Notes under the pieces: generated by a model
Seen by the model: the letters and a program-made list of their open reading frames with translations, nothing else
The model's database searches: none
Told to the model about the DNA's origin: nothing
Shown: positions 1,978 through 46,603 of the stretch, one piece after another
Layout: every line of letters begins with the position of its first letter
Position numbering within the stretch: position 1 is the stretch's first letter
Translations under genes and position numbers: made by a program
Virus record (IMG/VR): IMGVR_UViG_3300029267_003268
Location: 1-53,395 of that record
DNA: 53,395 nt
Strand: one strand, 5' to 3'
From: a virus
Lineage: Duplodnaviria; Caudoviricetes

Positions 1978-4662
1978 GTGGAGCAAATGGTCGCATTGAC
2001 CGATACAGAACGAGTAGTAGCCGAGCGGTTATTCCGATACGGGGCCGATCCGCGCGGTTTCACTATCCACATTCTCAACCATCCCGCCGAGTACTACTGG
2101 CCGAAGATGCAGGAAGTGGCCGAGAGCGTGCGCGACTATCAGTTGACCGCCGTCCCCGCCGGCCACTCGGTCAGTAAGGCGTTAGAAGTTAGCACTCCGA
2201 TTCTCACGCCGTCTGGTTTTGTCTCGATGTCGAACCTTGCCGCCGGTGATATTGTCTACGGCGAATACGGCCAGCGTATTCATGTCACGGGTCGTTCTCC
2301 GGTCCGGCGTCGCCTGTCGTATGAATTGACCTTTGACGACGGGGCTTCTTTACTTGCCTGCGACGAACACTTGTGGGCGGCGCACGATTATGTGTCTCGT
2401 ACGCACATGCGTCGCCAGTGCCGTCAGGAGTATCGAGCGTCCTGGTCTTCGTCGCGCCTTGTGAACACGCTGGGGATTGCTTCGGCGTTACGCCACAACG
2501 GCCAGACCAATTGGTCCATTCCCGTTGCTTCTGCCGTGCGTGGTCGGTCCCATCTGTCGGGCGCTTATACGATTGGTTTTTGGTTGGGCGACGGCTGTCG
2601 GGGCACTGCGGTGGTGACGATTGGCGATGGCGATGCACCGGAGGTGTTATCTCGGATTGCGGCCGATGGTTTTTCGTGTAGCCGTCAGCCCTCTGCCGAC
2701 CAGGAGAATTGCAAGAATTACACCATCCACGGTTTGCGTGGTCTCTTGCGTAGGTATGGTATTTTCAAGGACAAGCGCATCCTGGTTCGCTGGTTGCGCT
2801 TGCGGTACGAAGATCGACTGGCGTTATTGCGCGGGTACATGGACGCCGACGGCTGGCGTCTGGCCCATGGCAAATCCGCTGCTGTTGGCACGACGGACCG
2901 GCGCATGTACGAGACGGTTGTTCCGTTCGTTGCCTCCTTCGGAAACAAGGTCTTTTGTAAGACGGAGACCATAACATACAAAGGTCAGCCGAAACTCGTA
3001 TACAAGCTGAACTTCACGCCTCGTGACCAGCCGTTTTGTTTGGCGCGAAAGCAATTACAGAACAGCCTCAGCGTTCACGCACGCCGGCGACAGACGGCTC
3101 GCATGATCTTGGATTGTCAACCTGTCGGCGAAAAGGATGTCTGCTGTATTGAGACCGACAACCCAAGCGGTCTGTATTTGGCTGGTCCTCATTTGGTGCC
3201 GACCCATAACACCCACGGCGCCGGGCGTATCGTTCCCTGGTTCAAGACTTGCTATCAGCCGTCCACGGTGATTACGACGGCCCCGTCGGACAATCAGGTT
3301 CGCAATCAGCTCTGGCGTCAGATACACGGGGCGTATGCGGCAGCCAACGGTGTGCTGGGCGGGAAGATGACGGCGTTGCAGTGGGACCTGCGGCCCTCGG
3401 ACGAGGTATTGCAGCAGATGGACCCGGCGGAGCGGCAATGGTGGTTCTTGAACTTCGCCATGGGCTTTTCGACGTCTCCGGACACCGTGAGCGAACACGC
3501 AACCAAGATCGCTGGCTGGCACAACCGCTGGATGCTCATCGTCCTTGATGAGGCGTGCGGCATTGCCCCCCCGATTTGGCGGACGGTCATGGACGCACTG
3601 GTCATCAACGAACAAGTCAAGGTCCTGGCTATCGGCAATCCCACGGACCCGGAAGCGGAGTTCGCGGCGGCCTGCCGCTTGAACGGTTCCCTGGAACATC
3701 TCGCCGCGCCCAACGGGGACATGCGCGGGCCTTCCGTATCCTACATGGGCGACGAAGGCTGGCATGTGGTACCCGTCTCCGTTTTTGATACCCCCAACTA
3801 CAAGGAAGGCACAGAACGGATTCCCGGTTTGGCGGGGCGCTCGTACGTCACACTGATTGAGAAGAAGCATCCTCCCGGCAGTAACGGCTGGCTGATTCGG
3901 CTGCGCGGGGCCTTCCCTTCGCACAAGGAGGGCACGTACTACGGGTACGAGCTGTCCCAGGCCAAGAGCCAGAACCGCATCGGCCGCTTCCCCCATGATC
4001 CCACCTTCCCGGTCTACTGCTTCGCCGATCTCGGGGACGTTTACACGGCGGCGATTTGGGTGCAGTTCATTCGCGACCGCGTTCGGGTCATCGGCGATTA
4101 CTGGGACAATAACGGCATCGTGAAGGTGCTCGGCGATACCCACACGGTAGATGGGGCCGGGGCCGAGGCGTTCGCCCGCGCCATGCACAGCGTTCCTTAC
4201 ACCTGGGGCAAGCAGCATTACGCCGGGCCCGACCTGACCGGCAGTAACGCCAAGAAGTTCGGCCAGTCCGGCCAGACGACGCAGACGCTGCTGCGCAGTC
4301 TCGGCTTCAATTTCCAGCCGTGCGAGAACGTAGGTTTCAACGAGGGCATTCAGAGCGTTCGCAATCTCTTCCCGCTTTTGGATATCGACGCCGCCGGCGC
4401 AGCTACCTTTGTCAAGGCCATTACCGGCTACCACAAGGCCAAGAACGCCGGGCTCAGTACGCAGGACGAGGCGGCCTTCCACAATCAGCCGGCGGCTACC
4501 TGGCACCGGCACACGGCCGACGCGCTGCGGCACTTGGCCGTCGCCTACGAGTACAATACGATCAACGGGCAATACCTCGGGTCCAAGCGGGTCATCGCCC
4601 AGTACCGTACTATCCAGCGCGGCAAGCGCGGTAAATATGACCCGATGGAATGGGTCGCATAA
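1978..4662 (+). CDS. terL: Terminase large subunit, intein-containing
   Basis: Walker A GHSVSK|T split by intein, Walker B LIVLDEA, coupling motif IGNP, nuclease DLG and HTADALR. Confidence 0.93.
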   Translation: MEQMVALTDTERVVAERLFRYGADPRGFTIHILNHPAEYYWPKMQEVAESVRDYQLTAVPAGHSVSKALEVSTPILTPSGFVSMSNLAAGDIVYGEYGQRIHVTGRSPVRRRLSYELTFDDGASLLACDEHLWAAHDYVSRTHMRRQCRQEYRASWSSSRLVNTLGIASALRHNGQTNWSIPVASAVRGRSHLSGAYTIGFWLGDGCRGTAVVTIGDGDAPEVLSRIAADGFSCSRQPSADQENCKNYTIHGLRGLLRRYGIFKDKRILVRWLRLRYEDRLALLRGYMDADGWRLAHGKSAAVGTTDRRMYETVVPFVASFGNKVFCKTETITYKGQPKLVYKLNFTPRDQPFCLARKQLQNSLSVHARRRQTARMILDCQPVGEKDVCCIETDNPSGLYLAGPHLVPTHNTHGAGRIVPWFKTCYQPSTVITTAPSDNQVRNQLWRQIHGAYAAANGVLGGKMTALQWDLRPSDEVLQQMDPAERQWWFLNFAMGFSTSPDTVSEHATKIAGWHNRWMLIVLDEACGIAPPIWRTVMDALVINEQVKVLAIGNPTDPEAEFAAACRLNGSLEHLAAPNGDMRGPSVSYMGDEGWHVVPVSVFDTPNYKEGTERIPGLAGRSYVTLIEKKHPPGSNGWLIRLRGAFPSHKEGTYYGYELSQAKSQNRIGRFPHDPTFPVYCFADLGDVYTAAIWVQFIRDRVRVIGDYWDNNGIVKVLGDTHTVDGAGAEAFARAMHSVPYTWGKQHYAGPDLTGSNAKKFGQSGQTTQTLLRSLGFNFQPCENVGFNEGIQSVRNLFPLLDIDAAGAATFVKAITGYHKAKNAGLSTQDEAAFHNQPAATWHRHTADALRHLAVAYEYNTINGQYLGSKRVIAQYRTIQRGKRGKYDPMEWVA
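2179..3210 (+). mobile_element. Intein (344 aa, Ala1, class-3-like) with LAGLIDADG homing endonuclease
   Basis: Starts ALEVSTPILTP, block B DEHLW, block F VCCIE, ends PTHN followed by Thr; LAGLIDADG motifs IGFWLGDG and LRGYMDADG. Confidence 0.92.
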
Positions 4663-4672
4663 GGAGACAGAC

Positions 4673-5053
4673 ATGATTGCACCGATAGCACAAGCCGTTA
4701 AGAGGATGCCGTTGTTGCTGGCGTGTAAATGCGCCCGGCACGCGGTAGTACTACCGCGCGGCGAGGGGAAAATGGTATGGGCCTGCTCGGCGTGCGGGGC
4801 CGGTCAGGAAGTGGAGTTCGGACGTGACGACCGCAACCCGGCGGGCGTGCAGTTCGGCTCGCGCCGCCGCCCGGTAGAGTTGGAATGCCCCTGCGGCCAG
4901 AAGGACCTGATTGTCCTGCCGTTGGGCAAGGGGACGCTCGTCTGGTCGTGCGGGCACTGCAAGCAGCGCTGGCGCATTGATTTTACCCCTACGACCGAGC
5001 AGATCGCCAAGGGCGTGAAGATCGTGGCGCCGTTTGAGAAGGAGCCGAGCTGA
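4673..5053 (+). CDS. Double zinc-ribbon hypothetical protein
   Basis: Two CxC...WxCxxC repeats; AAGGAG RBS. Confidence 0.7.
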   Translation: MIAPIAQAVKRMPLLLACKCARHAVVLPRGEGKMVWACSACGAGQEVEFGRDDRNPAGVQFGSRRRPVELECPCGQKDLIVLPLGKGTLVWSCGHCKQRWRIDFTPTTEQIAKGVKIVAPFEKEPS

Positions 5054-5165
5054 TGAGTTCGCAAAAGCCGTCCAAGGAGAAGTAACTGACGGCATAACCG
5101 ATCCAAAAAAGATGACGGCACAGGCGGGTCGCTCCCGCTGAGATGCCTTAACCATCGCGACCGTT

Positions 5166-5216
5166 AAGGGGCCGCGTCGGGCGTACCGCACGCTTGGACG
5201 CGGCCCCTTCTTTTTT
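5166..5216 (+). terminator. Rho-independent terminator
   Basis: AAGGGGCCGCGTC...GACGCGGCCCCTT stem followed by T-run. Confidence 0.75.
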
Positions 5217-8057: not shown

Positions 8058-8254
8058 AACTGGACGCAACTAATTTCACCTACCAGGGCCATCGACTCTG
8101 GATACAAGACGACGAGGACGGCAGCGCTCGCGCCGCGATGGACTATCGTATCGGCGAAATCGGCCAGCGCGTTCTGCTCGTTCAAGACAAGAACCTTCCC
8201 GTAGAAGAAAGGATCGTACATGGCAAAGAAGAAAGAGACACCCCAAGTGCCTGA
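8054..8254 (+). CDS. Hypothetical protein
   Basis: ATGA overlap, co-oriented. Confidence 0.55.
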   Translation: MKLDATNFTYQGHRLWIQDDEDGSARAAMDYRIGEIGQRVLLVQDKNLPVEERIVHGKEERDTPSA

Positions 8255-8540
8255 GCCCGTCGAGGCAGAGCCCGTCGAGGCAGAGCCCGTCGAGGCAGAG
8301 CCCGTCGAGGCAGAGCCCGTCGAGGCAGAGCCCGTTGCGGCAGAGCCCGTCGAGGCGAACGTTCAGATTCGGGTCGATATTACCGGCGCTTCCGTGCACC
8401 GATTGAAGGTGCCCGCAAGCCACGTCGATGCGGCCCTGGAACGGATCGTTCGGTGCGGAATCCAACAGCCCGGCGGATCGCCCAACAAAACCCGAGTGTA
8501 TCTGCCCCATCAGTTCGAGGCGGTCACAATCATTCGGTAA
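8220..8540 (+). CDS. Hypothetical protein with (EPVEA)7 repeat
   Basis: AAGGA RBS; in-frame 15-bp repeats. Confidence 0.65.
   Translation: MAKKKETPQVPEPVEAEPVEAEPVEAEPVEAEPVEAEPVAAEPVEANVQIRVDITGASVHRLKVPASHVDAALERIVRCGIQQPGGSPNKTRVYLPHQFEAVTIIR
8253..8357 (+). repeat. 7 x 15-bp tandem repeat GAGCCCGTCGAGGCA
   Basis: Directly visible; coding. Confidence 0.95.
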
Positions 8541-10259: not shown

Positions 10260-13166
10260 ATGAAGAAACGCATCTTCTTTGCGGTACTGCTGGCGATGCT
10301 GTGGGGCGCTCCGCGCGCCCCGGCGGCTATGACCAACAGTGCCAGCAATATTGTCAGTCCTGACTACGTCTCGTTCATCGGCTCGATGAGTACGACGTTG
10401 GACCCGGTCTATCTGTTCGGTAACGAGGTCGAGGGTTTGCTGGAGGGCACCAGTGCCTTCGGCAATCTGCTCGATACGGATTCCTATATCCAGTTTGCCG
10501 AGATGAGCGCTCCGGGCAGTCCGGCGGCCAATCACGGCCGCCTCTACGTCGCCGACGACAGCGGGACTACCACCCTCTACTTCAAGGACTCCAGCGGCAC
10601 CGTGTCGAGTTGCATTTCCGGCTCCGGCACGTTCACCGGCGGTGCAATCAGCAGCGACGTGACCCTGGCGAACGGGGTGGACATCTACAGCTCCACAACC
10701 GCCGCCCATACCAGCAGCATCGGCGTGCGTCGTGATTCTGCCTACGTAGACGCTTTTCGCTGGACGAACCACGACACCACGCCGGCCCTGGTCCTGGGGT
10801 CTGCGACAACCTCGTTAGCCGTCACTTCAACGGGCCTGAACGTTACGACCGCCGGCGCCGTTACGGGCGTAACCGATCTGACGGCGACCGGGACGCAGAC
10901 GATCAACGCCAGCGGCTCGGACGCCACCAATATCGGCACCGGGTCCTATTCCGGTACGGTAACGCTCGGCAACAACTCCGCCAGTGTCGCCGTCGGCTCC
11001 TCGGCCTGGGACATTAGTAGCGACGGGGCCATGAGCGGCTTTTCCAGCCTCGGCCTGTCCGGTGATATTACGATGGCCCACGGCAAAGGCGTTAAATCCT
11101 CGACGACCACCGCTCAGAGCGTGGGCGTCTACGGGTACGACGTCGGCGCCGGCTACGTGGGGGCCCTGGTCGTTACCAATTCCGCTACTCCGGCCACCGT
11201 CTTGGGCAATACCAGTGGCACTACGGCCATTTCGTCCAGCGATTGGACGGTGAGCACCGCCGGCAACGCGGCCGGGCTCGGTACGATCACCTCGGACGGG
11301 CTCTTTACCTGTACCGGCGGCGAGACGATGACGGGAACGGTGTCGATCAACGACAGCGCGACCACGTCCACCACCAGTATCGGGGGCGGTACGACCACGG
11401 GCACCATTACCATCGGTGGCACCGGGACGCAAGCCGTGGACATCGGCAATGGGGCCGGCATCAAAACCGTGGCCCTCGGCAGCAGTACCACGTCGAGTAC
11501 GACCACGATCAAGGGCGGCTCCAACGGCGTCAACGTCAACGTCTCGGCCGACGACCCCACCAATATCAATACGGGCACCTCGACCGGCACGGTGACAATC
11601 GGCGGCACCGGCGCACTGGCCATTGCCATCGGCGACGGCGGGACCGGGGCCAAGACGATTACCCTGGGCGACGGCGCGGGGGCTGGCTCGACGACCATCA
11701 AGGCCGGAACGGGCAACCTCGACCTATCCGCCGTCGATGACGTTTCACTCAACGGCGGCTCCGCCGGCTCTATTATCGCCATCGGCACCAACACCCACGG
11801 CAACGTCCTGAATATCGCTACGGATGACACCGCGCTCGACGACATCAACATTGGTAGCGCCAAGGACACTCCCACGATTCTCGGCTCGGCCATTGTTATC
11901 ACGGCCGGGACGGACAATCTGGCCATGAGTGCGACCGATGACGTGAGCTTGAACGGCGGGTCCGCCGGTTCAATCCTGAACCTGATGACCAATACCCACG
12001 GCAACGTCCTGAATATCGCTACGGACGACACCGCGCTGGATGACATCAACATCGGCAGTGCTAAGGATACGCCGACGATTCTCGGTGCGACCATCGTCGT
12101 GACCGCCGGGGACGGCGATCTTACAATGAGTTCGAACGACGACGTCACGCTCAACGGGGGTAGCGCCGGCTCGATTATCAATATCGGGACGAACACCCAC
12201 GGCAACGCGATCAACGTCGGCACCAACAACACGACCGCCGATACCATTGCCGTCGGCAGTGCCAAGGACACCGTTACCGTCGATGGTATCTCCACCACTA
12301 TTGGTTCGACGGGCACGACCTCGGCGACCATCATCCAGTCGGGCACGTCCGACCTCGACATCAACGCCGGGGCCGCCCTGGACATCGACGCGGCGACAAC
12401 TCTCGATATCCTGGCCGGGGGCGCCTTCTCCATCGACGGCTCCAACGCCGCCAGTAACATCTCCCTGGCGACGAACGGCGACAGCGACGACTTCACCATC
12501 GGTCTGACCGGCGCCACCAATTCCAGCATCCTACTCAACAGCACGGGTACGGGCACCGATGCGATTGGGCTGACGGCCGGGGCTGGGGGCATTACCGCGA
12601 GCGCTGCGACCGGGGCCGTCGCCCTGTCCGGTCTCACCGGCAATACCATCACGGCTACCGCCGTCGCCGACGGCGCCAAGGGCACGACGCTGTCCGGCTC
12701 CATCGCCGGGGCGACCGCCTCCGAAGGCGTCGGGGCGTACGTCGAGGGCAATATCACCGGCAATACGGACGGGAAGGTCTATGCCTTCGGTTCCTGGCTC
12801 AACGTCACTGCCGGTACGCCGACCGACGGGAGCGACGCCATCCTCGCCGGAGCGGACGTCGGTATCTACGCCGCCGCCGCGCCGGAACTGGTGAACTGCA
12901 AGCTGCGCGTCTTGAACCTGGAGTATCAGGTCCACGCGGACGCCGGGCCGATCGACGACACCACGTCGATGATCCACTTCAACGCCGATTCCGGCGGGGA
13001 CGTGCCCGACTACCTGTTCACGTTCGGCAATGCGGACGCCGCTGTATACACGGCCAATACGACGCATACAGCGGCCAATACCGATAAGATCGGCGCCATC
13101 AAGATCAGCATTACTGGCACCGCCGAGAACGCTTACCTCTACGTTTATAGCCATGCCGGACAGTAA
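10260..13166 (+). CDS. Large Gly/Thr/Ser-rich beta-repeat fibre/adhesin-like protein with signal peptide
   Basis: MKKRIFFAVLLAMLWGAPRAPAA; ~67-aa internal repeats (NTHGN). Confidence 0.7.
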   Translation: MKKRIFFAVLLAMLWGAPRAPAAMTNSASNIVSPDYVSFIGSMSTTLDPVYLFGNEVEGLLEGTSAFGNLLDTDSYIQFAEMSAPGSPAANHGRLYVADDSGTTTLYFKDSSGTVSSCISGSGTFTGGAISSDVTLANGVDIYSSTTAAHTSSIGVRRDSAYVDAFRWTNHDTTPALVLGSATTSLAVTSTGLNVTTAGAVTGVTDLTATGTQTINASGSDATNIGTGSYSGTVTLGNNSASVAVGSSAWDISSDGAMSGFSSLGLSGDITMAHGKGVKSSTTTAQSVGVYGYDVGAGYVGALVVTNSATPATVLGNTSGTTAISSSDWTVSTAGNAAGLGTITSDGLFTCTGGETMTGTVSINDSATTSTTSIGGGTTTGTITIGGTGTQAVDIGNGAGIKTVALGSSTTSSTTTIKGGSNGVNVNVSADDPTNINTGTSTGTVTIGGTGALAIAIGDGGTGAKTITLGDGAGAGSTTIKAGTGNLDLSAVDDVSLNGGSAGSIIAIGTNTHGNVLNIATDDTALDDINIGSAKDTPTILGSAIVITAGTDNLAMSATDDVSLNGGSAGSILNLMTNTHGNVLNIATDDTALDDINIGSAKDTPTILGATIVVTAGDGDLTMSSNDDVTLNGGSAGSIINIGTNTHGNAINVGTNNTTADTIAVGSAKDTVTVDGISTTIGSTGTTSATIIQSGTSDLDINAGAALDIDAATTLDILAGGAFSIDGSNAASNISLATNGDSDDFTIGLTGATNSSILLNSTGTGTDAIGLTAGAGGITASAATGAVALSGLTGNTITATAVADGAKGTTLSGSIAGATASEGVGAYVEGNITGNTDGKVYAFGSWLNVTAGTPTDGSDAILAGADVGIYAAAAPELVNCKLRVLNLEYQVHADAGPIDDTTSMIHFNADSGGDVPDYLFTFGNADAAVYTANTTHTAANTDKIGAIKISITGTAENAYLYVYSHAGQ

Positions 13167-43044: not shown

Positions 43045-43323
43045 ATGATTATGGCAGGCGAACAAATGGATTTGATTGACGTCACACCCGAGGAACTCAA
43101 GAAGATCAAGCCGGTGGCGACAAAGTACAAGGCGGCGATGACGCGCCGGACGGAAGCGTTGGCCGAGGAAACACAGCTCAAGGAACAACTGCTCACGATG
43201 GTGAAAGAGGCGGACCTGACCCGCCTGGATGATGGCAGCATCAGGTTCACCTGCGACGGCCTGCTCATCACCGTCACACCACGCGACGAGCTGGTCCGGG
43301 TCAAAGAAACCGACGACGGATAG
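43045..43323 (+). CDS. Hypothetical protein
   Basis: AAGGAG RBS. Confidence 0.7.
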   Translation: MIMAGEQMDLIDVTPEELKKIKPVATKYKAAMTRRTEALAEETQLKEQLLTMVKEADLTRLDDGSIRFTCDGLLITVTPRDELVRVKETDDG

Positions 43324-43346: not shown

Positions 43347-44000
43347 ATGAACATTACACTTGAGTTCACCGAGCCGTTGCTGGGAACGTTGCCGGCGGAC
43401 CCGGACATTGCCAGGGAGTTCATTCTGGCCAATCATCCGACTGGCGTACCGGCGGCGGACGAAGACGCCACGTTGCCGGCGGCGGACGATGTGTTCGAGA
43501 AAAGCATTACGACCTTTGCCCGCGTGGACGGCAAGCCTATCGTGTGGGATTACCAGATCAAGGGGTTCTTCAAAGACGCCTGCCTCGCCATGATCGATAT
43601 GCAGAGCCACACGCAGGATTCGCTCAAGAAGGCCGGTCTCACAAAGTACATGTATAAACGCACCATCGACAACGTGATCTTCCCCCGGCCCCGGTTCATC
43701 GCCTTGGAACAGCCGGACGGGCCTCCCGAATGGCCGAATTGGGAGAGCCTCCCGGAAGGTCCGATGGGATTGAAGCTGTTGCAGCGTCCTCTCCGAAAGG
43801 AAAATCCACGCGGCGGTACGACGTGCCTGGCGACCTCTGAGATTATCCCGCCCGGCACGAAGCTGCAATGTGAGATCTGCATTGGAGCCGACCGCCTGGA
43901 GCCCTACGTCGTCGAATGGCTCGACTACGGGGCTCTCAAAGGCTTGGGGCAGTGGCGAAATGCCAGTTACGGACGGTTCGCATGGTCCGCGCGAGCGTGA
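43347..44000 (+). CDS. Stand-alone Cas7/RAMP-superfamily-like protein
   Basis: ITLEFTEPLLGT, YQIKGFFKDA, SEIIPPGTKLQCEI, C-terminal G-rich loop GLGQWRNASYGRF in RAMP order. Confidence 0.75.
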   Translation: MNITLEFTEPLLGTLPADPDIAREFILANHPTGVPAADEDATLPAADDVFEKSITTFARVDGKPIVWDYQIKGFFKDACLAMIDMQSHTQDSLKKAGLTKYMYKRTIDNVIFPRPRFIALEQPDGPPEWPNWESLPEGPMGLKLLQRPLRKENPRGGTTCLATSEIIPPGTKLQCEICIGADRLEPYVVEWLDYGALKGLGQWRNASYGRFAWSARA

Positions 44001-44481
44001 GCAAAGGCACAGCCCAGCACAGCAAAGCAAAGGCAAGGCTGCGCGATGCGGGGCAACGGCAAAGCGCTGCATGGCTCCGCTAAGGCAAGGCGCGGCATGG
44101 TGCGGCGATGCAAGGGCAAGGCAAAGCGAAGCGCAGCCTAGCAAAGGCAAAGCAAAGCGCCGCGCCGCGAAGGCGGGGCATAGCGAAGCACAGCGAAGCA
44201 AAGGCATGGTTAGGCATGGTTAGGCATAGCGAAGGCACAGCAAGGCACCGCTTAGCTCCGCTACGCAAAGGCAAAGCGAAGCGAGGCTAAGGCCAAGTGT
44301 AGCCGCGCGCTGCTAAGGCGGAGCGTCGTTGCGCAACGCAAAGGCAAAGTATAGCCAGGCGCAGCAAAGGCAAAGTACAGTAACGTTTGGCACAGCAACG
44401 GCAAGGCGTGGCAACGCGCGGCGCCGCAAAGGCAAGGCTCAGTATGGCACAGCAGAGCAAAGCAAAGGCACAGCATTGTAA
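44000..44481 (+). repeat. 5-nt periodic (NGY-NN) array segmented by 17 GCNANGGC delimiters; putative guide-RNA array
   Basis: Delimiter spacings all 5n+1 (21-36 nt); GC/GT every 5 nt; no convincing ORF. Confidence 0.85.
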
Positions 44482-44512: not shown

Positions 44513-45358
44513 ATGTACGGTAAAATCTTCGCTGAAATCTTCGATTCGAGTTTGCAAGGCGAATGTGACGGCATCGCCATGTTTGTCTTTATGAGCATGA
44601 TTGTCCTGGCGGACAAGGACGGCTATGTCCGCGTGGACGAGCTGAATTTCTATCGCAAGCTCGGCTTGCCGTGGGGCGACCCCGACGGCATTGACAAGTG
44701 GGCTCTACGTCGTTTCCGGGAAGCAATCGACCTATTGGCGGCCCCCGACGAAAACAGCAATATCGCCAAGGAGGGCGGCCGTCGCATCATTCCGCTATCT
44801 GAGTTGACTGGCGGCGAAGAAAATCGGGGCTGGTGGATCGTGAACTATGAGCATTACTGCCACAAGGCGAGCGAGGCCAAAATCCGAGCCCAAACACGAA
44901 AACGGGTTCAACGGCACCGGCAAAAACAGACGGAAACTATGCAAAAGTGTAACGCACCCGTAACGCAGTGTAACGAAAAACCTCGACATATAGATATACC
45001 TGTAAATATAGATAATATAGCGCAAGCTGCGCTTGCTTGTGCAGGCGATGAGTCTTTTGCACAGTTTTGGGATGCATATCCGAAGAAGCGCAGCAAGAAG
45101 GATGCACAAAAAGCATGGCGCAAGCTCAAACCTGATGACGCCCTCTTCCGGACGATCATGGACGCCGTGGCCTTCTGGAAGCAAACGCCAGATTGGATGA
45201 AAGAGAAAGGCGCCTACGTGCCGTTGCCGGCGACGTGGCTGCGTGGTGAGCGATGGACAGATGAACGCCCCGAACTGCCGCCGCCAAAGAAGGATATTCG
45301 CGAGACAATGCACGACTTCTTTGCCAAGCACCCGGAGTATGACGATGACCAAACTTGA
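44513..45358 (+). CDS. Phage replication initiator
   Basis: MYGKIF..IFDSSL N-terminus, RKRVQRHR linker, FAQFWDAYPKK..KKDAQKAW, PATWLRGERWTD. Confidence 0.8.
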   Translation: MYGKIFAEIFDSSLQGECDGIAMFVFMSMIVLADKDGYVRVDELNFYRKLGLPWGDPDGIDKWALRRFREAIDLLAAPDENSNIAKEGGRRIIPLSELTGGEENRGWWIVNYEHYCHKASEAKIRAQTRKRVQRHRQKQTETMQKCNAPVTQCNEKPRHIDIPVNIDNIAQAALACAGDESFAQFWDAYPKKRSKKDAQKAWRKLKPDDALFRTIMDAVAFWKQTPDWMKEKGAYVPLPATWLRGERWTDERPELPPPKKDIRETMHDFFAKHPEYDDDQT

Positions 45359-46016
45359 GTTCGAGGAATTCTTTTTGAACGACCTGAAAGGACGTTGGCC
45401 CAAATGGGATCCCACACCGGCCATGCTGGAAGATTGGTTCTCTATTCTCCGCTACCACACGCCCGACGTAGCCAAGCAGGCCATCCAAGAGCACCGCCTG
45501 GGCGATAAGAGCACGCGATGGGAGCCGCAGCTTCGCGACGTCAAGAAGCGGCTCTGGCAGCTCTCGAAGCGCGCTGGTAGCGATGACGTGCTCGGTACGA
45601 CGTATTTCGCCTACGTGCGGTGTCTTGAGCCGCCGGCAGGTCATCCCGAATGGCAGGACGAAGAATGGCTATCGCTGGAGCGGTTCGAACGGTCCCGCGC
45701 CACCGATAAGAGATACGTCGCCAGCTATGCCGAGCGGCGGGCGGCGGCGGTGCAGCAGGAAGAGGGCGGTCGGTGGTGCGGTGTCGTGCGCCCGGACGGC
45801 CAAATGCCGCCGGGGTTTCCGACGCTGGAGAAGGAGGAGGCGAGGCAGTGCGTCGAACAACATTGCCGCAACGGACCCAATACCGCCGCCCGGCGTTATT
45901 TGCTGGGCGCTTCCGGTAGCATGAGGCCCGTATTGAAAACGGTTGAGAGCGTCGCGAAAAGAGAGATAGACAAGGCGGCGGACGAACTTAACGAGGACCG
46001 ATGGGAGTTTGGATGA
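45345..46016 (+). CDS. Putative helicase loader / replication accessory protein
   Basis: Follows initiator; MTKLEFEEF..L..RWP, AIQEH. Confidence 0.5.
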   Translation: MTKLEFEEFFLNDLKGRWPKWDPTPAMLEDWFSILRYHTPDVAKQAIQEHRLGDKSTRWEPQLRDVKKRLWQLSKRAGSDDVLGTTYFAYVRCLEPPAGHPEWQDEEWLSLERFERSRATDKRYVASYAERRAAAVQQEEGGRWCGVVRPDGQMPPGFPTLEKEEARQCVEQHCRNGPNTAARRYLLGASGSMRPVLKTVESVAKREIDKAADELNEDRWEFG

Positions 46017-46603
46017 GCAAATCGAAAATCATCCTGGATCTGTGCGGTGGCACCGGGGCTTGGTCGCAGCCGTACCGCGATGCCGGCTACGACGTGCGGC
46101 TGGTGACGTTGCCGGATGCCGACGTTCGGTTGCGAATGCCCATTGGCAACGTTCACGGCGTTCTGGCGGTACCACCCTGTACGCACCTGGCGGCGTCAGG
46201 AGCCCGCTGGTGGAAGGACAAGGGGCGGCAACCGCTATTGGATGCGTTGGCGGTTGCTGACGCCTGTATGCGAATTGTGGCCGTTGAGCAACCGGCATGG
46301 TGGGCGCTCGAAAACCCGGTGGGGAGATTACGCCACTACTACGGAGACCCGGCTTTCGACTTCCATCCCTGGGAGTTCGGCGATCCCTACACCAAGAGAA
46401 CGTATCTGTGGGGAAAGTTTACTGCGCCGCAGCGGCAACCGTGCGAGCCGGAAATCACGGACCATAAAAAGTTCACGCTCAGAGACATGCACAGGCTGTT
46501 TCCGTCCCGGATGCACTTGCTCCCGGCCGGACCAGACCGGGCCCGCTATCCTTCAATCACTCCCCCCGGCTTCGCACAGGCATTTTTCAAGGCGAACCCA
46601 TGA
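46013..46603 (+). CDS. Short C5-cytosine methyltransferase-like protein
   Basis: ILDLCGGTG, PPCT, ENPVG motifs. Confidence 0.75.
   Translation: MSKSKIILDLCGGTGAWSQPYRDAGYDVRLVTLPDADVRLRMPIGNVHGVLAVPPCTHLAASGARWWKDKGRQPLLDALAVADACMRIVAVEQPAWWALENPVGRLRHYYGDPAFDFHPWEFGDPYTKRTYLWGKFTAPQRQPCEPEITDHKKFTLRDMHRLFPSRMHLLPAGPDRARYPSITPPGFAQAFFKANP

Follow-up and report, generated by a model that had tools for sequence, protein, structure and literature searches.

A RAMP gene and its adjoining pentamer array

The stretch of DNA analyzed here (hereafter the window) is the complete virus record IMGVR_UViG_3300029267_003268, which comprises 53,395 bases with direct terminal repeats at a G+C content of 59%. 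Within it, a stand-alone gene for a Cas7-group RAMP protein (43347..44000, + strand), assigned from its open reading frame (ORF), a structural model, and fold searches, adjoins a candidate array of guide RNAs (vrRNAs; 43989..44481, + strand) made up of 94 N-G-Y-N-N pentamers in the same orientation as the gene. Systems of the VIPR type (Viral Interference Programmable Repeat) are mostly phage-borne and combine a minimal RAMP (Vipr) with vrRNAs of GGY/NN pentamers (10.64898/2026.04.26.720920). We describe the locus as a probable member of this family, and its gene as vipr-like.

The vipr-like ORF is preceded by an AAGGAG ribosome-binding site and encodes 217 amino acids (aa). An initial reading of the letters alone, made without database searches (the sequence-only reading), had singled out four motifs in this protein. 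All are present in 43347..44000, in the order then given: ITLEFTEPLLGT (residues 3-14), YQIKGFFKDA (69-78), SEIIPPGT (164-171), and GLGQWRNASYGRF (199-211). The last of these constitutes the G-loop, and a thumb hairpin carries the motif RPLR (147-150); an alignment of 43 homologs shows no variation in either the C-terminal G-loop motif or the RPLR hairpin.

The onset of the array overlaps the final codons of the vipr-like gene, and its end at about 44481 lies 31 nucleotides (nt) before the next start codon. Identity of the array to itself is 0.538 at a lag of 5 nt, as compared with 0.19-0.26 at lags 1-4, and reaches 0.574 at lag 26. A chain of 95 G-Y anchors extends from 43989 to 44478, of whose steps 75 measure 5 nt and 19 measure 6 nt; a second count of the anchors returned 75 steps of 5 nt, 18 of 6, and one of 4. 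Position 2 of the pentamer is G in 94/94 repeats and position 3 is a pyrimidine in 94/94 (C in 84, T in 10), in agreement with the array of about 480 nt, with GC or GT every 5 nt, that the sequence-only reading had placed after the gene. Position 1 is G in 39 repeats, A in 36, C in 15, and T in 4, and is thus a purine in 75/94; with G there in only 39/94, the array does not hold to the canonical GGY scaffold. In 100-nt windows, lag-5 excess ranges from 0.205 to 0.355 within the array, and across 5264 windows outside it has a mean of -0.015 (standard deviation [sd] 0.053). Because the excess elsewhere never rises above 0.178, the array is the sole above-threshold 5-periodic tract among the 53,395 bases. 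The G-Y chain scores 161.5 on the + strand versus 134.5 on the other.

One-base slips recur regularly along the array at a conserved junction, NGC-A-A-N followed by GGC-A (GCAAA|GGC). These slips split it into 16 complete units, all of length 5k+1 (seven of 26 nt, six of 31, two of 36, and one of 21), with a 15-nt end piece of three pentamers after unit 16; the division into units claimed from the letters alone is therefore real. Boundaries follow the hexamer positions, all on the + strand. Units 1-3 occupy 44006-44031, 44032-44057, and 44058-44083 (26 nt each), and across this span (44006..44083) each has GGC at its start and an NGCNAN hexamer at its end. Units 4-8 follow at 44084-44114 (31 nt), 44115-44145 (31), 44146-44171 (26), 44172-44202 (31), and 44203-44233 (31), the last being a low-complexity alternation of GGCAT and GGTTA. 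Units 9-12 lie at 44234-44269 (36), 44270-44290 (21), 44291-44316 (26), and 44317-44342 (26), units 13-16 at 44343-44368 (26), 44369-44399 (31), 44400-44430 (31), and 44431-44466 (36), and the terminal three-pentamer piece at 44467-44481.

Rfam returned no family within the array; the only match was a sub-threshold nhaA-I hit at 43230-43281, and no hammerhead was seen. No promoter-like or terminator-like site turned up between gene and array in a consensus scan. The next gene begins 31 nt past the array, which makes co-transcription likely.

Fold of the Vipr-like protein

The 217-aa protein matches no Pfam or PHROG family, and its 6003 homologs in a large protein collection (E <= 1e-3) are all unnamed or labeled "hypothetical." Members of the family in NR include HUU17377.1, HSW63969.1, and MFX0200168.1. 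An AlphaFold2 model built on 43 homologs (predicted local distance difference test [pLDDT] 84.4; predicted template modeling [TM] score [pTM] 0.78) drew 23 Foldseek matches from the PDB at E <= 1e-3. Those listed are all CRISPR RAMP complexes, the Cas7-group subunits among them being type VII Cas7, Csm3, Csf2, Cmr4, and Cas7-11, and the top match is the type VII Cas7 8z4j_J (E 1.7e-5, TM 0.51). In a structure search independent of Foldseek, CRISPR RAMPs made up 49 of the 50 rows listed, including Csm3 9g9a_D (Z 10.9; root-mean-square deviation 4.0, 151 aligned) and 6ae2_B (Z 10.7). The best match in BFVD is a gut-phage protein, A0A8S5R426 (E 3e-20, 40% identity), labeled by its depositors as a "Cas system-associated RAMP superfamily protein." As modeled, the protein has a Cas7/RAMP fold and is a minimal RAMP with a single RRM core, a glycine-rich loop, and a thumb; the resemblance to Cas7-group RAMPs suspected from motif order is thus upheld by the fold searches.

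The protein also carries an insertion of about 20 residues (PDGPPEWPNWESLPEGPMGL; residues about 122-142, window 43710-43775) that is missing from most of the 43 aligned homologs. The model places it between a core strand and the thumb hairpin with high confidence.

A Pfam scan of 47 of the 66 candidate window ORFs, the 19 omitted being mostly short or on the minus strand, detected no Cas family, and Tandem Repeats Finder found no repeat-spacer (CRISPR-like) array in the window, consistent with the claim of the sequence-only reading that cas genes and CRISPR are absent. The components of a class 1 CRISPR-Cas system (repeat-spacer array, cas5, cas6, large subunit, and cas1/2) were accordingly lacking within the tested window ORFs.

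Gene-array linkage across homologs

The sequence-only reading had tied its proposal to homologs carrying such an array as well. Among 80 IMG/VR loci retrieved with the family alignment, all 80 have the gene accompanied, at a distance of no more than about 650 nt, by a 5-periodic tract; this tract lies downstream in 79 (on both sides in locus L001) and only upstream in L014. An adjacent 5-periodic array is likewise present in 74/80 loci from species-representative genomes (61 downstream, 11 upstream, and 2 on both sides); no tract reached threshold in the remaining 6/80, one of which has only 88 nt of room. Hosts named in the genome records include Planctomycetota, Bacillota, Bacteroidota, Actinomycetota, and an Asgard archaeon metagenome-assembled genome. 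The pairing of this gene with an adjacent pentamer array is a family trait across very different phages.

Arrays score better on the strand of the gene in 75 of 86 cases. These arrays follow the same grammar as that of the window: over 81 loci, 4594 steps measure 5 nt and 948 measure 6 nt, and the junction logo reads NGCAA-N|GG(C/A)A. After an unrelated 100-nt repeat in L007 and L009 was excluded, 793 of 862 units from these loci were clean, mostly 26 nt (207), 31 (312), 36 (139), or 41 (45) in length. Unit content changes rapidly: in 630 pairwise comparisons, loci with vipr nucleotide identity of at least 99% share 71% of units, falling to 34% at 97-99%, 17% at 94-97%, and 2% at 80-90%, and unit number varies even between loci with identical genes (nine in L032, seven in L039). 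Because unit sharing collapses as vipr identity drops, units turn over far faster than the adjoining gene, as expected for exchangeable specificity cassettes.

Relatives of the genes flanking the locus in the window occur in only 0-5 of the 160 homologous loci. The commonest neighbor family, which lies upstream of vipr, is found in 16 of 70 Vipr groups, and the window is without it. Neighboring genes are not conserved; in the window, the system consists of the gene and the array.

Several features of individual relatives may be mentioned here. The closest IMG/VR relative, L001 (48% identity), has arrays on both flanks of the gene, at 3071-3910 and 4601-5210 (about 840 and 610 nt), that carry the same GCAAAGGC junction as the window. 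A conserved 66-aa ORF beginning MTLDDIRAMSKPTIL lies directly upstream of vipr in many gut-phage relatives (L032, L037, L050; about 3790-3990), and is not found in the window. It looks, from its sequence, like a small DNA-binding protein and could be the accessory (vap-like) gene of that gut-phage clade. Two near-identical loci, L007 and L009, contain a tandem repeat of about 10-11 nt (AAAGTGARCT-like; 2931-3030) roughly 1 kb upstream of vipr, which is not pentamer-coded.

Probable kinship with VIPR and proposed mechanism

Seven VIPR types have been defined, with a scaffold that may be GGY or "a related consensus" (10.64898/2026.04.26.720920). The NN bases pair with double-stranded DNA, each third target base being skipped, and the natural targets are rival phages and satellites (10.64898/2026.04.26.720920). 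Competition with satellites includes decoy uses of vrRNAs by the satellites themselves (10.64898/2026.10.15.759431). In type II, one protomer binds each pentamer and the GGY is sequestered: H17 and D177 recognize G1, the thumb residue R138 together with W178 of the G-loop grips G2, and Y3 occupies a purine-excluding pocket with R179, in a filament with six subunits per turn, or five when DNA-bound (10.64898/2026.04.26.720927).

VIPR loci are marked by at least four tandem pentanucleotide repeats with fixed and hypervariable bases beside an adjoining gene, mostly in a viral or proviral setting, outside CRISPR-Cas loci. The window has 94 such pentamers next to the vipr-like gene, within a complete virus record with phage modules, and 154/160 homologous loci show the same arrangement. 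Its non-GGY scaffold rules out the canonical VIPR form, not the VIPR family.

As a type II reference we used the Vipr of Escherichia phage SUSP1 (KT454805.2 28474..29061, 195 aa), whose family has 529 homologs as compared with 6003 for that of the window. Published Vipr homologs were gathered by PSI-BLAST from X1U2U4 (10.64898/2026.04.26.720920), and 10 cluster look-ups returned none of the five Vipr seed accessions. The stretch that aligns between the two families is the G-loop, GLGQWR..GRF in the window and GVGDWR..GRF in SUSP1, and reading the two sequences by eye places an R-P motif in the hairpin before the G-loop in both. A model of the SUSP1-type protein (pLDDT 95.4) and that of the window protein share their top five BFVD entries (A0A8S5R8I9, A0A822ZZ46, A0A8S5R426, A7WKN2, and A0A0A0P750); A0A8S5R426, which belongs to the family of the window protein, is reached from the SUSP1-type model at E 5.7e-8 and TM 0.60. 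Judging from these models, structure links the window protein to SUSP1 Vipr more firmly than sequence does. We conclude that the locus is very probably a VIPR system that does not belong to type II and stands, as a solo-gene member, in a large branch far removed from that type; it lacks tails and a vap1-like gene, and its units are much shorter.

Several results weigh against this assignment. An hhalign comparison of the family with a SUSP1-type alignment matched 35 C-terminal columns only, at a marginal probability of 47% (E 1.9e-4), and the family hidden Markov model finds nothing in the SUSP1 genome. The 16 abutting units of 4-7 pentamers, without a tail, a pseudoknot, or a vap1-like gene, depart from the type II layout, and among the 160 homologous loci the gene has no conserved accessory (vap) neighbor. 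RNA folding of the array is no better than that of shuffled sequences (z -1.59; 11/200 shuffles fold as well). In the preprint, confirmation by small RNA sequencing is stated for ribozyme-interspersed and single-vrRNA layouts and not for staggered ones (10.64898/2026.04.26.720920).

No target emerged from a local search. The 474 unique units from 81 loci were compared with the 1.34 Mb of retrieved loci, with arrays masked and perfect matches only, under eight pairing rules (NN or NNN, 0-3 skipped bases) with 20 shuffles each. In this small set of sequences, none of the rules yielded matches convincingly in excess of those from shuffled units; NN with one skipped base returned 29 perfect matches versus 29.4 in shuffles. 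Apparent excesses for NNN with no skip (55 vs. 20.3, sd 8.9) and NN with two skipped bases (61 vs. 28.9, sd 14.6) proved on inspection to involve redundant loci and A-rich patterns, and period-5 rules were probably inflated by residual array sequence. Substitution rates in near-identical units (0.184 at N1, 0.106 at N4, and 0.171 at N5, as compared with 0.041 at G2) are ambiguous as to whether position 1 pairs.

On balance, the locus is very likely a VIPR-type system of a temperate phage, composed of one Vipr-like RAMP and a guide-RNA array in five-base steps. By analogy with type II, the array would be transcribed from the + strand along with the gene as part of an early operon, and protomers would polymerize along the RNA, one per pentamer. 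Thumb residue R147 and G-loop residues W203 and R204 may hold G2 and Y3, with the variable bases presented for discontinuous pairing to the double-stranded DNA of a rival mobile element, which would thereby be silenced. The residues that read G1 appear to be replaced: Q202 aligns with D177, and the match of T14 to H17 was made only by eye. Loss of the H17 and D177 equivalents would fit a free position 1 (NGY instead of GGY). At GCAAA|GGC, the additional base most likely marks the border between short, tail-less guides of 4-7 pentamers. More speculatively, units of 5-7 pentamers may correspond to about one filament turn, and the junction base to a processing or capping site.

The third scaffold position differs in many relatives. 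In many gut-phage arrays (L012, L014, L034, L045, and L062 among them) it is A or C (GGA, AGA) and not always a pyrimidine, and in the first pentamer of the unit over all loci the frequencies are 0.40 for A and 0.57 for C. Because this position is A in many arrays, the purine-excluding pocket of SUSP1 Vipr may not be upheld across the whole family.

Alternative explanations

A first alternative keeps the locus within the same family and gives it another code, in which each 21-36-nt unit is a separate, tail-less guide spanning roughly one turn of the filament, with pairing by N4, N5, and the N1 that follows, so that the published rule of NN plus a skipped base does not apply. Variability at position 1 equals that at positions 4 and 5, and the substitution rates given above show it changing as often in near-identical units. 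Q202 takes the place of the G1-reading D177 of SUSP1 Vipr in the alignment (the T14/H17 correspondence resting on inspection by eye), and NN alone would specify just 8-14 bases per unit. The commonest units contain 5-7 pentamers, as compared with the five to six subunits per turn of the published filaments, and YNNNG repeats are listed in the Methods without a pairing rule (10.64898/2026.04.26.720920). However, the purine at position 1 in 75/94 window repeats suggests a scaffold G that has been relaxed more than it does a guide base free to vary, no pairing rule yielded a clear excess of matches, and types III and V, searched with the NN rule, did give matches in the preprint (10.64898/2026.04.26.720920). 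We therefore regard this code as possible but doubtful for the window. Its extension to the large NGY branch as a whole is somewhat less likely still; here, tail-less guides of 4-8 pentamers, about one filament turn in length and set off by a one-base slip at GCAAA|GGC, would pair through three bases in each five, the protein having lost its G1-reading residues. If true, this would constitute a second noncontiguous code and the shortest natural guides known.

A second alternative holds that the ribonucleoprotein acts on RNA, or works on the phage's own genes as decoy or regulator, instead of silencing foreign DNA. Among solved structures, the nearest folds belong to type III and type VII Cas7 subunits, which target RNA; the local target search yielded no DNA target, and satellites do deploy decoy vrRNAs (10.64898/2026.10.15.759431). 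The sole characterized relatives, however, bind double-stranded DNA, and fast turnover of units suits an arms race with outside targets better than self-regulation. These considerations make an RNA-directed or self-regulatory role improbable.

The array might also be a DNA-level element, either replication-origin iterons or a bent-DNA tract serving the downstream replication-initiator-like gene (44513..45358; PHROG replication initiation families, phrog_9474 E 1.5e-23), whose start codon is 31 nt past the array end. This position and a 5-bp rhythm equal to half a helical turn would accord with such a role. Across homologous loci, though, a relative of the initiator occurs in only 5/160 and beside the array in 0/5, as compared with an array in 154/160, which shows that the array follows the RAMP gene and not the replication gene. 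The pattern is moreover strand-asymmetric, with position 3 never a purine on the + strand, and we consider a DNA-level element very improbable.

Translation of the array, or its descent from a coding repeat, is extremely improbable. In its favor, ORFs of 50-117 aa overlap the array on both strands, and stop codons are rare because T is scarce (44/481 bases). Against it, each + frame holds 4-5 stops, identity at lag 3 (0.211) is lower than at lags 1 and 2 and gives no 3-nt periodicity, and no reading frame is sustainable under a 5-nt rhythm with +1 slips, in line with the non-coding array of the sequence-only reading.

Genomic context of the locus

The window encodes the small and large terminase subunits, a portal, a major capsid protein, tail proteins, and an integrase, a gene content that marks the phage as temperate and tailed. 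Two exonucleases, an HNH protein, the replication-initiator-like protein, and two DNA methyltransferases are also encoded, and the vipr-like gene and its array sit within the early/replication module. Downstream of the VIPR locus, at a distance of a few kb, come the methyltransferase genes (46001-46603 and 48540-49541; phrog_757 E 4.6e-47, PF01555 E 8.6e-25), which are probably anti-restriction genes.

Relatives of this phage are nearly absent from the collections searched. Its replication protein had no matches and its capsid protein matched three partial contigs in IMG/VR, and the capsid protein had no relatives in the genome contig collection. Public sequencing runs containing the stretch comprise four DNA runs, with none of RNA listed.

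Repeats of other kinds occur elsewhere in the window. A tandem repeat at 32310-32596 (units of 24-27 nt, about 5-6 copies, 74-88% matches) lies immediately upstream of the integrase, where it extends over the 3' end of ORF 31971..32468 and the gap that precedes ORF 32706..33029; it could be a binding-site array. A 15-nt tandem repeat (6.9 copies, 95% matches) lies at 8253-8356, upstream of the capsid gene, and a 201-nt repeat (2.3 copies) at 11748-12207, within a 968-aa ORF (10260..13166).

Comparison with known systems

The sequence-only reading had likened the locus to phage systems that combine a RAMP with GGY/NN repeat RNA. This comparison was sound: the kind of system is already known, VIPR having first been described in 2026 preprints, and type II works much as had been supposed for this locus (10.64898/2026.04.26.720920; 10.64898/2026.04.26.720927). 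It has been proposed that CRISPR RAMPs descend from VIPR systems, and that these are programmable DNA binders of very small size. To these the window adds a complete-genome example, from a marine or sediment phage, of a branch that is apparently the largest by homolog count yet uncharacterized; the locus stands out for having no partner gene and 16 very short candidate guides packed head to tail.

Among known systems, class 1 CRISPR backbone proteins (Csm3, Cmr4, type VII Cas7, and Csf2) provide the closest solved folds to the window protein (Z 8.8-10.9), and these proteins assemble along guide RNA in fixed steps and use a thumb to flip out bases. The window differs from these systems in having no cas genes or repeat-spacer array, in a step of 5 nt instead of 6, and in carrying guide information within the repeats and not in spacers.

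Type II VIPR, as represented by SUSP1 and a P. fulva prophage, is likewise built on a small RAMP with one RRM, whose secondary-structure elements come in the same order as those of the window protein; both also have a G-loop of the form G-x-G-x-W-R...G-R-F, an R-P thumb motif, and an array adjoining the gene in a phage. Type II differs in its scaffold (GGY, as compared with NGY in the window, with D177 replaced by Q202 in the alignment) and in its separate vrRNAs of about 100 nt, which have 9-16 repeats and a conserved 3' tail or pseudoknot and are accompanied by a vap1 partner.

A survey based on entropy periodicity reported 99 five-periodic clusters, 21 of them non-canonical (10.64898/2026.10.21.760802). 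These arrays resemble that of the window in consisting of 5-nt repeats beside Vipr-like folds with one degenerate scaffold position (WGT/NN, TGH/NN), although 10 repeats are described for those clusters, as compared with about 95 punctuated ones in the window.

The nearest counterparts are the YNNNG repeats and the "staggered arrays," the latter named in the text and the legend of fig. S18 (10.64898/2026.04.26.720920). Shared with these are a phage RAMP gene that stands alone, an extended pentamer array without gaps in which one G and one pyrimidine are fixed, and the lack of CRISPR; NGYNN is YNNNG in another register, and in both the guides abut with a one-base slip in register. The sequence-only reading had proposed that NGY with extra punctuation made this a distinct variant. 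The scaffold and its punctuation are real, but their novelty is only partial, as YNNNG repeats and staggered arrays already have names in the preprint. Because a one-base slip separates abutting units, the punctuated layout of the window probably corresponds to the staggered arrays, judging its 5k+1 units and GCAAA|GGC junction against the published text.

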